DNA of 64,000 bases from Candidatus Firestoneibacteriota bacterium (GTDB taxonomy: Bacteria > Oederibacteriota > Muellerivitia > Muellerivitales > Muellerivitaceae). The DNA is taken from assembly GCA_013286205.1 (NCBI GenBank), contig JABDGD010000003.1, positions 16,558 to 80,557 on the forward strand. Direction: 5' to 3'. The notes beneath the pieces are model-generated. The model saw only the letters and a program-made list of their open reading frames with translations. It was not told where the DNA came from and made no database searches. The translations under genes and the position numbers were made by a program. Shown here piece by piece: positions 50,390 through 51,541 of the stretch (positions are counted from its first letter, which is position 1; each line of letters starts with the position of its first letter).

Positions 50390-51541
50390 CTAGTAGAACA
50401 TGTAAGCGTCTAGCACCGTGCCGTAAAAGGGGCCGGTGGTATAGTTTGCCGCGCCCGCCGTCGGATCCATCCGTTGAACATCTAATTGGCACTTCAAGTT
50501 GCGCACTGGGTAACAGCGGAAGCTGACCACATCCCGGAAGCCGTCAAAGCTGGCGCTTAAACTAGTGTCGGTTAAGTATTCGTTTACGAAGCGCAGATAC
50601 ATATTTTTCCCCAGATCAACTTCAACACTGGCGTGGTAGGCGGTGTAGTTGTTTTGCGGTACGACGGCGCCGCTGACCACGGTGTCATAACCCGAGTCAA
50701 ACTCACCCAAAATGACAAATGGGCCCAAGTGCGTCCAACCGAAAGCGCCGTAGCGCAGGTTGGTTCCGTACTGGCCGGCCACGCCGTTGGGCGTGTTCTG
50801 GTCGTAAATAGATCCGCCCAATGTGACTTCTTTCAGATTGATGCCGCCCTTGGCGGAGAAATCTTTATCGTTAGATGCCGCCGGATCATTAAAGGCCGCG
50901 GCGTTTAGGAAGAAAATCCCTGGATAAATACCAACCTCAATACCATCGGTGCTGAAAAAGGGATTGTTGAAAGTTAAAACGTTGGTATTACTTAAGTCGC
51001 CGCGCACCAGGCTATTGTCATCGGCTAATTGCAGACCATAGGGTGTCGTGAAGCGGCCCAGTTTGATGTAGGCATCTTGCGGCAAACCCGAGATAAGACC
51101 GTAAGCCTCGGTGGGGGAATTAATATCCAGGCGATAAGTGAAAACGCCGGAGATGACTTCATTCGCTTTAATGCCGATAGAAAAGCTTTGGCGGCCAAGA
51201 GGAACAAAAGGCGAATTGGGGTTAAAAGAAGCCAGGGTGCCGGTCGGCGCGGGCATAAAAAGGGCGCCGAAGCTTTCGTGCAGATCGACTCCCGCGCTGA
51301 TGAAGGTCGGGGTTTTGTGGGTGAAGGCCTGGGCGGTTTCAGCGATGCCCTGCCAGTCGAAAGTTTTCAGGTCGTTGCCGTAATTGCGGCCAAAGTCGTT
51401 GCGCAAATATCCGCCGGTTTCATTCATGTGGCAGGCGTTACAGTTAACGCCCTGCCAGGCGGCCAGATAAGGTTCTGCCCAAAGATTCGAGATTCCCAGC
51501 GCCATCAGAAGGATAGTCAGAATTCCTATCTGCTTTTTCAT
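50390..51541 (-). CDS. Cyc2-like fused monoheme c-type cytochrome / outer-membrane beta-barrel porin
   Basis: Signal peptide ([16 protein letters not shown]), then '[19 protein letters not shown]'. That gives a single CxxCH heme motif about 10 residues into the mature protein, preceded by a PxL motif as in Cyc2 homologs. The remaining roughly 330 aa are beta-strand-patterned and end 'LDAYMFY' (an OMP beta-signal). Confidence 0.55.
   Translation of the reverse strand: [383 protein letters not shown]

Follow-up and report, generated by a model that had tools for sequence, protein, structure and literature searches.

A candidate Cyc2-like cytochrome-porin in a Candidatus Firestoneibacteriota genome and its unannotated superfamily

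The stretch of DNA analyzed here (64 kb of contig JABDGD010000003.1; hereafter, the window) carries at positions 50390..51541, on the minus strand, an open reading frame (ORF) of 383 amino acids (aa) that we read as the gene of a fused monoheme cytochrome-porin resembling Cyc2 in its architecture. Residues 1-22 (51476..51541, minus strand, as are the following segments) are predicted from the sequence and from the alignment of homologs to form a signal peptide, as in Cyc2: behind a KK n-region come a hydrophobic core, a cleavage region of the form (A/L)WA and then an invariant EPY. In the family consensus the signal peptide ends in AWA, with EPY next, and the AlphaFold2 (AF2) model has a helix at residues 2-15. 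The heme-binding segment, residues 23-77 (51311..51475), was delimited as a near-invariant block of the family that hhalign aligns to the heme segments of Cyc2, and it contains the only CxxCH of the protein, the heme c attachment motif CNACH (C34, C37 and H38; 51428..51442). Residues 78-383 (50393..51310) make up the porin domain, which ends in F-Y and which AF2 models as a 16-strand β-barrel, with a predicted local distance difference test (pLDDT) score of 74 and a predicted template modeling (pTM) score of 0.75. The best structural matches of the modeled barrel are the anion and sugar porins OprP, Omp32 and chitoporin, so that it falls into the 16-strand OprO/OprP-like class to which the Cyc2 barrel belongs. 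The N-terminal CxxCH and the barrel that a preliminary description had read from this ORF are thus both present. A terminator-like hairpin with a T-run (50347..50362, minus strand) follows 28 nucleotides (nt) past the stop codon; it is a match to the consensus only, and a scan for sigma-70 promoters and terminators gave fewer matches than shuffled sequence and a single hairpin position worth noting.

Scans of the protein against Pfam and NCBIfam, the former proposed in the preliminary description, returned nothing useful, the sole match being CCP_MauG (E 0.14), which covers the CxxCH alone. This silence is uninformative, because genuine Cyc2 proteins likewise match no Pfam or NCBIfam entry. 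The family profile gave only a trivial CxxCH match among PDB sequences (cytochrome c552, E 0.16), and tblastn of the protein against plasmids gave no match. A search of 5.8 billion proteins retrieved 71 homologs of ~350-400 aa, all of them unannotated. In the alignment, all homologs (58/58) retain C34, C37 and H38, and the block E23-G55 is for the most part equally invariant; this invariance rules out a chance CxxCH in a plain porin, and heme-free best homologs with an unconserved CxxCH, which would have told against the preliminary description, were not what the search returned. Family members are 356-401 aa long (median 383), some of them lying under the 365-aa cut-off applied to Cyc2. In a scan of one genome per species, the family was found in 20 metagenome-assembled genomes (MAGs), 11 of which are labeled candidate division FCPU426, a rare-biosphere candidate phylum whose physiology is little described, the others being unclassified or loosely labeled.

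A much larger superfamily was obtained by comparing the family profile with 1.84 billion cluster representatives, which gave 1032 representatives at 50% identity with E <= 1e-3. The FCPU426 family is the top branch of this search (at least 280 bits), and the remaining superfamily scores at most 155 bits. Superfamily proteins have 345-426 aa and the consensus AEPYxAxRxGxxCxxCHVNPTGGGxRxxxG. Their signature, which the protein of the window matches, consists of an N-terminus of the form AEPY-hydrophobic-A...G..CxxCH-[VM]N-x-TGG, a barrel and a C-terminal aromatic residue; a single CxxCH is present in 115/120 members, and the C-terminal residue is aromatic in 98/120, often after a His as in HxFF. 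The superfamily matches no Pfam or NCBIfam entry, its named members are all hypothetical proteins from Ignavibacteria and Deltaproteobacteria MAGs, and we found no publication describing this cytochrome-porin family. Loosely defined "Cyc2-like" matches in earlier surveys, for example those in Ignavibacteriaceae, may include superfamily members.

Cyc2 is the principal marker gene by which microbial iron oxidation is inferred from genomic and metagenomic data; recognition relies on a signature motif and on hidden Markov models (HMMs) of the Cyc2 clusters. According to Keffer et al. 2021 (PMC8406198), a Cyc2 protein has a signal peptide, one CXXCH, no fewer than 365 aa and a 16-strand OprO/P-like barrel, which is itself best matched by OprP/OprO. 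The motif AXPXFAR[Q/K][T/Y] upstream of CXXCH is called unique to Cyc2 and is used to filter candidates for inclusion; a further motif, PXL, follows 4 aa after CXXCH, and inclusion also requires a blastp E <= 1e-5 to cluster queries (Keffer et al. 2021). We collected Cyc2 comparators by two routes. A probe derived from the published consensus was used for tblastn against plasmids, which gave six proteins, from Caballeronia, Methylocystis, Ideonella, Ralstonia, Polymorphobacter and an Acidithiobacillus ferrooxidans plasmid; in all six, c-type cytochrome genes follow and the motif A-x-P-x-F-A-R-Q-T-G-x-x-C-x-x-C-H-x-x-[FY]-P-x-L is present, and more than 5500 homologs of 420-563 aa were retrieved with them. 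Additionally, a DNA pattern of the signature, with its spacing verified on the six, was scanned over metagenomes of the Joint Genome Institute (JGI), which gave 80 complete and diverse Cyc2 genes (395-581 aa) that we divided into four groups of our own, g0-g3.

The architectural marks of Cyc2 are all found in the protein of the window: the signal peptide, the single CxxCH, the 16-strand OprP-like barrel, and a length that is shorter than the 409-563 aa of our 126-sequence Cyc2 set, yet above 365 aa. The motif PxFAR[QK][TY] upstream of the heme site is absent from the family (0/58) and the superfamily (0/120) members counted and present in 105/126 Cyc2 sequences (plus 80/80 of the metagenomic set). 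PxL downstream was counted in 0/58, 0/120 and 120/126 of the same sets, and an Arg at position -6 in 0/58, 0/120 and 84/86. TGG at +4 to +6 after the heme His is present in 57/58 family and 101/120 superfamily members and in 0/126 Cyc2 sequences. The upstream motif of the target, A-E-P-Y-L-A-A-W-Q, has A-x-P-x-hydrophobic-A in register and lacks R, [QK] and [TY]. The best blastp match between the six comparators, taken as a proxy for the published queries, and the family has an E-value of 0.013 in a very small database, and the target scores 5.8 bits with a home-made HMM of the 126 Cyc2 sequences, a proxy for the FeGenie HMMs.

What family, superfamily and Cyc2 have in common is the scaffold A(-12)-x-P(-10)-x-hydrophobic(-8)-A(-7)-x3-G(-3)-x2-C, with identical spacing throughout. 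The preliminary description had singled out the very short mature N-terminus before the heme motif; it is indeed short, and it is no peculiarity of this protein, because the scaffold spacing is equal in Cyc2, where 10 residues lead from the P to the first Cys just as they do here. The description had also taken a PxL ahead of CxxCH as the defining feature of Cyc2. The PXL of Cyc2 lies on the other side of the heme site, and P24-Y25-L26 belongs to the upstream motif, of which it forms the first half. As to the compact Cyc2 sub-family that had been suggested, the compactness stands (356-401 aa, compared with 395-581 aa); since the published inclusion criteria fail, the target appears to be better described as a member of a distinct sister family than as a Cyc2 sub-family.

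In order to compare these groups beyond the reach of pairwise searches, we aligned their profiles with hhalign in local mode; the E-values given are those for a single pair, and the heme segment was compared without the signal peptide. For the heme segment, superfamily and Cyc2 groups matched with a probability of 90-97% (E 1e-6 to 1e-10), the family matched three of the four Cyc2 groups with 93-95% (E ~1e-7), and the Cyc2 groups matched one another with 99.4-99.7% (E 1e-21 to 1e-27). For the barrel only, the superfamily matched Cyc2 g3 with 96.3% over 272 columns (E 1.5e-9), g1 with 94.8% over 235 columns (E 5e-8), and g0 and g2 with ~26%, and the family alone gave at most 1.1%, which is not significant, against any Cyc2 group. 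Between Cyc2 groups the barrel probabilities were 0.2% (g0 and g1) and 0.8% (g1 and g2), and controls with reversed and column-shuffled profiles gave at most 0.4%. The barrels of family and superfamily matched with 100% probability. With HMMER, the family profile aligned only the signal peptide and heme motif of Cyc2 (10-13 bits). Accepted Cyc2 clusters have significant homology only at the N-terminus (He et al. 2017). From these profile comparisons we conclude that the superfamily has common ancestry with Cyc2; in the barrel it is about as distant from some Cyc2 groups as those groups are from one another, and in the heme segment farther. The label of a Cyc2-like fused cytochrome-porin therefore holds for the architecture and, remotely, for the heme segment and (via the superfamily) the barrel, and fails for the signature, PxL and blastp.

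The gene context of the superfamily was sampled in eight loci. Genes for c-type cytochromes lie beside the cytochrome-porin gene in seven of the eight, and a cupredoxin gene in four. In four loci a cupredoxin homolog, the cytochrome-porin and a diheme cytochrome c are encoded in that order; in another (L156) the order is monoheme cytochrome c, cytochrome-porin, diheme cytochrome c, Usp and a bd-like oxidase subunit, with more cytochromes beyond; one has a diheme cytochrome c two genes upstream and one has two cytochrome-c-like genes downstream. The diheme cytochromes are weakly similar to those beside the Cyc2 comparators. As far as gene order can tell, this redox context supports an electron-transfer role.

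Two side observations concern these loci. L156, which comes from a Deltaproteobacteria MAG, contains at 11681..13318 an unusually long superfamily member of 583 aa. Its gene seems to be part of an operon that also encodes four c-type cytochromes, a protein resembling cytochrome bd subunit I and a protein with an EB_dh domain, and that looks like a complete electron-transfer chain. Moreover, a conserved protein of ~490-525 aa with no Pfam domain is encoded directly upstream of the operon for cupredoxin, cytochrome-porin and diheme cytochrome c in four superfamily loci (L154, 4163..7512; L157, 2..1474; L159, 4031..5578; L160, 1760..3316). Three of these proteins, compared pairwise, are 40-45% identical (E 1e-106 to 1e-134), and the 518-aa protein of L160 was grouped with them by position and size only. 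The protein may be a further component of the module.

For the FCPU426 family itself, the context was determined by tblastn of the window proteins against the 20 genome loci. A lipoprotein gene for a cupredoxin-like protein of 140 aa, with a GTG start and a TP-rich linker, lies at 55861..56283 (plus strand); its Pfam Copper-bind match (E 0.0012) is under the cut-off, and its sequence has a His...Cys...His...Met ligand pattern. It is followed on the same strand by a monoheme c-type cytochrome lipoprotein of 215 aa (56347..56994), with CSSCH, a long T/N/P linker and the C-terminal sequence WINEGALNN, and by a second cupredoxin-like lipoprotein of 156 aa (57215..57685), a paralog of the first (43% identity, E 1e-31). 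One or more cupredoxin-like lipoproteins are encoded near the cytochrome-porin in 9/20 family loci, and homologs of the monoheme cytochrome c lipoprotein in 5/20, as well as beside the superfamily members of L156 and L158. In L016-L019 the cupredoxin gene is directly upstream of the cytochrome-porin gene on the same strand, and in L030 it ends 63 nt before it; in the window these putative redox partners lie ~4.3 kb from the cytochrome-porin gene, beyond a sigma/anti-sigma pair. The redox context occurs in the deepest branch and in four further clades of an unsupported neighbor-joining tree, which argues that it is not one young syntenic block.

Between the cytochrome-porin gene and these genes lies first, at 51681..52451 (minus strand), the gene of a heme-less outer-membrane channel of 256 aa, found next to the cytochrome-porin gene in 8/20 family loci. 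It contains no CxxCH, models as a 12-strand barrel and falls into the KdgM / COG4313 / FapF-type class, with its monomeric 12-strand fold. A second barrel upstream in the same orientation had been pointed out in the preliminary description and does exist; as a partner porin we reject it, at least as an obligate one, because it is of a different, 12-strand class, its orientation relative to the cytochrome-porin gene varies between genomes, it is absent from 12/20 loci, and the target gene has a promoter-like motif of its own. Next come an orphan periplasmic sugar-binding-type protein (xylF-like; 52608..53636, plus strand; Pfam Peripla_BP_4, E 3e-41, NCBIfam xylF under the cut-off), an NrsF-type membrane anti-sigma factor (54434..55129, minus strand; Pfam NrsF, E 7e-14, 52.5 bits with a cut-off of 26.8) and a SigF-like extracytoplasmic function (ECF) sigma factor (55126..55686, minus strand; Pfam Sigma70_r2 and r4_2), each of them present in 9/20 loci.

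Several features of these neighbors deserve mention in their own right. In the FCPU426 cupredoxins (window 55861..56283 and 57215..57685, both plus strand; L030, 9126..9938; L032, 9449..9967), the putative copper ligands His and Met are separated by an unusual loop rich in Cys, e.g. FHCTVPGHSPCGSGTCGTCTGM, with the pattern C-x4-C-x2-C. To our knowledge, classical type-1 copper sites have no such loop, which could bind a second metal or form a disulfide. After the lipobox, these proteins have TP-rich linkers of 30-150 aa. The first cupredoxin ORF, with its GTG start, was left uncalled by public gene callers on three contigs, and in L030 a spurious ORF (9110..9646, minus strand) was called antisense to the TP-linker. 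A small cytochrome c ending in W-[IV]-x-x-G-A-x-N-N recurs beside cytochrome-porin genes in unrelated lineages (window 56347..56994, plus strand; L156, 7506..7979; L158, 1306..2205 and 2368..2799; L012, 9354..10118, minus strand), and we presume that it resembles the planctomycete PSCyt1 domain; in the 299-aa copy of L158, CVNQGCH, i.e. CX4CH, replaces CXXCH. The xylF-like gene has no ABC (ATP-binding cassette) permease or ATPase genes nearby, and in nine loci it always stands between the 12-strand barrel gene and the NrsF gene; its product could serve as a sensor partner or act together with the KdgM-like channel.

The pair at 54434..55686, in which the NrsF anti-sigma gene lies next to the ECF gene and is accompanied by a GTAAC-type -35 element, has the makeup of a SigF/NrsF system. 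An ECF promoter-like motif, GTAACATT-N13-CAATAGT, is located at 51606..51635 (minus strand), 87 nt upstream of the start codon of the cytochrome-porin gene, so that this gene appears to be served by an ECF-type promoter of its own within the 139 nt that separate it from the upstream barrel gene. A divergent GTAACATT pair occupies 55729..55774, with one motif (55729-55736, minus strand) 43 nt upstream of the ECF gene and the other (55767-55774, plus strand) 87 nt upstream of the first cupredoxin gene. These are the only three GTAACATT sites of the window, all of them intergenic and all facing genes of the cluster. By count they are not unusual, three sites being reached in 19/100 shuffles; what is unusual is where they lie, and all three positions of the motif recur in L001 and L002. 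Ahead of the ECF gene, at a distance of 49-51 nt from its start, a conserved GTAAC[ACT]T-N13-C.CTAT was observed in 9/9 loci with that gene, and in L009, L010, L017 and L018 the motif precedes the cupredoxin gene, itself upstream of the cytochrome-porin gene on the same strand. The experimentally defined σF site of Caulobacter is GTAACC-N16-CGAA; the -35 element of the window agrees with it, and the -10 element (C.CTAT or CAATAGT) differs from it. The GTAACC upstream of the cytochrome-porin gene in L007 and L013 was rejected as a promoter, since it is coding sequence (VTFLG) at the end of a YfhO-like gene.

Taken together, we consider it rather probable that the product of the gene is an outer-membrane protein in which a monoheme c-type cytochrome is fused to an OprP-like porin of 16 strands, a Cyc2-like electron conduit belonging to a separate, unannotated superfamily. 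After removal of the signal peptide, the heme would attach to C34/C37/H38, 12 residues into the mature protein, in a segment of ~55 residues that would run straight into the barrel. With the heme in or at the barrel, single electrons would be exchanged between carriers in the periplasm and a redox substrate outside the cell or at its surface, as proposed for Cyc2. The carriers would be, in the FCPU426 lineage, cupredoxins tethered as lipoproteins by long linkers and the monoheme cytochrome c, and in the wider superfamily a cupredoxin and a diheme cytochrome c. With cupredoxins and class-I cytochromes c as partners, in place of multiheme cytochromes, metal reduction seems less likely than electron uptake by oxidation of Fe(II) or other soluble reductants; the external donor could be Fe(II), for which there is precedent, or reduced humics or Cu(I) in bog and soil. 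Transcription in this genome would depend on the neighboring SigF-like ECF sigma and NrsF anti-sigma pair.

A number of points weigh against this reading. The signature motif, PxL and a blastp match at the published threshold, by which Cyc2 is recognized, are all missing from the target, and our groups g0-g3 are not equated with the published Clusters 1-3. The barrel homology is a transitive link through the superfamily, because the family profile alone reaches no Cyc2 barrel. The structure model called for in the preliminary description delivered the barrel; the heme segment, with a pLDDT of 33-49 in this heme-free model, is too low for placing a plug or a sixth ligand. No conserved Met was found in the alignment of the family, and its invariant H88 and H303 are not conserved in the superfamily, which instead has a His four residues from the C-terminus. 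As for the context, one of the eight superfamily loci has a solitary cytochrome-porin gene, and no cytochrome-maturation or terminal-oxidase genes were found within the window. Finally, in ~8/20 family loci the cytochrome-porin gene follows one or more YfhO-like membrane protein genes and precedes a tightly coupled gene for a PL14 polysaccharide lyase (E ~1e-47, sometimes overlapping), with no redox gene nearby; this arrangement, seen in L004, L006 (5556..10562), L007, L008 and L011, limits the reach of the context argument.

Among known systems, Cyc2 (A. ferrooxidans Cyc2, Mariprofundus Cyc2PV-1, Leptospirillum Cyt572) is the closest. Like the target, it has a signal peptide, only one CxxCH, which lies ~12 residues behind the mature N-terminus on the scaffold A-x-P-x-hydrophobic-A-x3-G-x2-CxxCH, a 16-strand barrel matched to OprP/OprO, a C-terminal aromatic residue, and class-I c-type cytochrome and/or cupredoxin genes nearby. 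The target family differs from it in having no R(-6), [QK](-5) or [TY](-4), in having VN-x-TGG where Cyc2 has x3-PxL, and in being ~70 aa shorter (median 383, compared with ~450-465); its members and those of the superfamily come from FCPU426, Ignavibacteria and Deltaproteobacteria MAGs, which are not recognized iron oxidizers. The rus operon of Acidithiobacillus (cyc2-cyc1-cup-coxBACD-rus) resembles the superfamily loci in linking an outer-membrane cytochrome-porin gene to a blue-copper protein and a c4-type diheme cytochrome. Unlike the rus operon, the loci described here have no adjacent terminal oxidase genes, except for the bd-like subunit in L156, and their cupredoxins are lipoproteins with long TP-rich linkers, those of FCPU426 having the Cys-rich loop; the partners in the window form a separate transcription unit 4.3 kb away, and the ECF sigma and NrsF elements of its cluster are not known for the rus operon. 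The phosphate-selective porins OprP and OprO (PDB 2O4V, 4RJW) are 17% identical to the target; OprP has no heme segment, and there is no match at the sequence level. The two-component porin-cytochrome complexes MtrAB, MtoAB and PioAB are, as we suppose for the target, thought to move electrons through an outer-membrane β-barrel.

We tentatively go one step further, and hold it to be possible, if on balance doubtful, that the superfamily is a second large cytochrome-porin family, of at least 1000 clusters at 50% identity, spread over FCPU426, Ignavibacteria, Deltaproteobacteria and other uncultured lineages. It would have Cyc2 ancestry and a different heme pocket, with TGG for PxL, no Arg at -6 and possibly a His as sixth ligand, and would have been missed by Cyc2 filters; its members would form an alternative module of electron uptake at the outer membrane, with a cupredoxin and a diheme cytochrome c as built-in partners, and in FCPU426 this module would have come under a SigF/NrsF switch that senses periplasmic stress. 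In these bacteria of bog and soil, the exchange of electrons with the outside would then be induced by stress and not be a constitutive respiratory function. If a sister family with the same architecture and partners lacks the signature, surveys of extracellular electron transfer may overlook a whole class of candidates, and peat, bog and soil, the source of FCPU426 and of many superfamily members, would be especially affected. PxL and TGG would offer a natural comparison for the tuning of the heme pocket in cytochrome-porin function, and the protein would be a first functional lead for the candidate phylum FCPU426. SigF/NrsF control, if real, would tie outer-membrane electron transfer to the sensing of envelope stress, which is undescribed for Cyc2.

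The same molecule could instead serve in envelope stress defense and not in energy metabolism, as part of a SigF/NrsF regulon induced by periplasmic oxidants or thiol-reactive metal stress, and could, together with the cupredoxins, detoxify redox-active metals such as Fe(II) or Cu(I) at the surface or feed electrons into periplasmic repair. The comparison with the SigF/NrsF systems of Caulobacter, Bradyrhizobium and Azospira (EcfF/OsrA) points in this direction: they sense Cr and Cd or reactive chlorine species, their regulons are small and adjacent, and the window likewise has an NrsF-family six-helix anti-sigma beside an ECF gene, a GTAAC -35 element and a small adjacent putative regulon. 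This regulon would, however, consist of the cytochrome-porin and the cupredoxin and cytochrome c genes and not of MsrPQ, MrpX or DUF692-type genes; known SigF regulons contain MsrPQ-type genes, and none were seen here. Moreover, the promoter assignment is one of motif conservation, with a -10 element unlike that of the Caulobacter consensus, and the superfamily operons look respiratory (cupredoxin, cytochrome-porin, diheme cytochrome c and, once, a bd-like oxidase subunit) and have no ECF genes. We therefore regard a stress role as unlikely.

It is improbable, in our view, that the protein is a substrate-specific porin for anions or acidic oligosaccharides with an accessory, structural or sensory heme and no conduit function. 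Such a porin would agree with the structural matches to OprP, Omp32 and chitoporin, with the tight coupling to a secreted PL14 lyase and YfhO-like membrane proteins in ~8/20 loci, and with the neighbors in the window, a KdgM/NanC-like 12-strand channel and the xylF-like binding protein. Yet an invariant CxxCH and its surrounding block over more than 1000 cluster representatives are hard to explain without a redox role, Cyc2 itself best matches OprP/OprO, and the linkage to cytochrome c and cupredoxin recurs in unrelated lineages. We consider it very improbable that the protein belongs among the true Cyc2 orthologs, for instance as a divergent member of Cluster 3, and oxidizes Fe(II) as Cyc2PV-1 or Cyt572 does: although architecture and fold are the same, homology is detectable in heme segment and barrel, accepted clusters share significant homology only N-terminally (He 2017) and some accepted subgroups have no mutual barrel similarity (g0 and g1, 0.2%), the signature PxFAR[QK][TY] and PxL are absent from every family and superfamily member counted, the best blastp match (E 0.013) and the HMM score (5.8 bits) are poor, and the Cyc2 subgroups are far more similar to one another in the heme segment (E 1e-21 to 1e-27) than to the target superfamily (1e-6 to 1e-10).

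The remainder of the window encodes lipopolysaccharide (LPS) heptosyltransferases, GDSL lipases and signaling proteins. A homolog of the TMEM175-family potassium channels (53703..54371, plus strand; Pfam E 4e-25) lies between the binding-protein and NrsF genes; among the 20 loci, only L016 has a homolog nearby, a weak one. An ORF of 368 aa with no Pfam match (57870..58976, plus strand) follows the second cupredoxin gene on the same strand and has no homolog in the flanks of the other 20 loci. Two very long ORFs, one of 1495 aa with a central GDSL lipase domain (19362..23849, plus strand) and one of 1480 aa with DUF7948 and six SBBP β-propeller repeats (31008..35450, plus strand), bracket genes for proteins of 350-366 aa that include a GDSL esterase, a GAF-GGDEF cyclase and GT9 heptosyltransferases, and the stretch 19362..35450 looks like a cell-envelope or LPS region.

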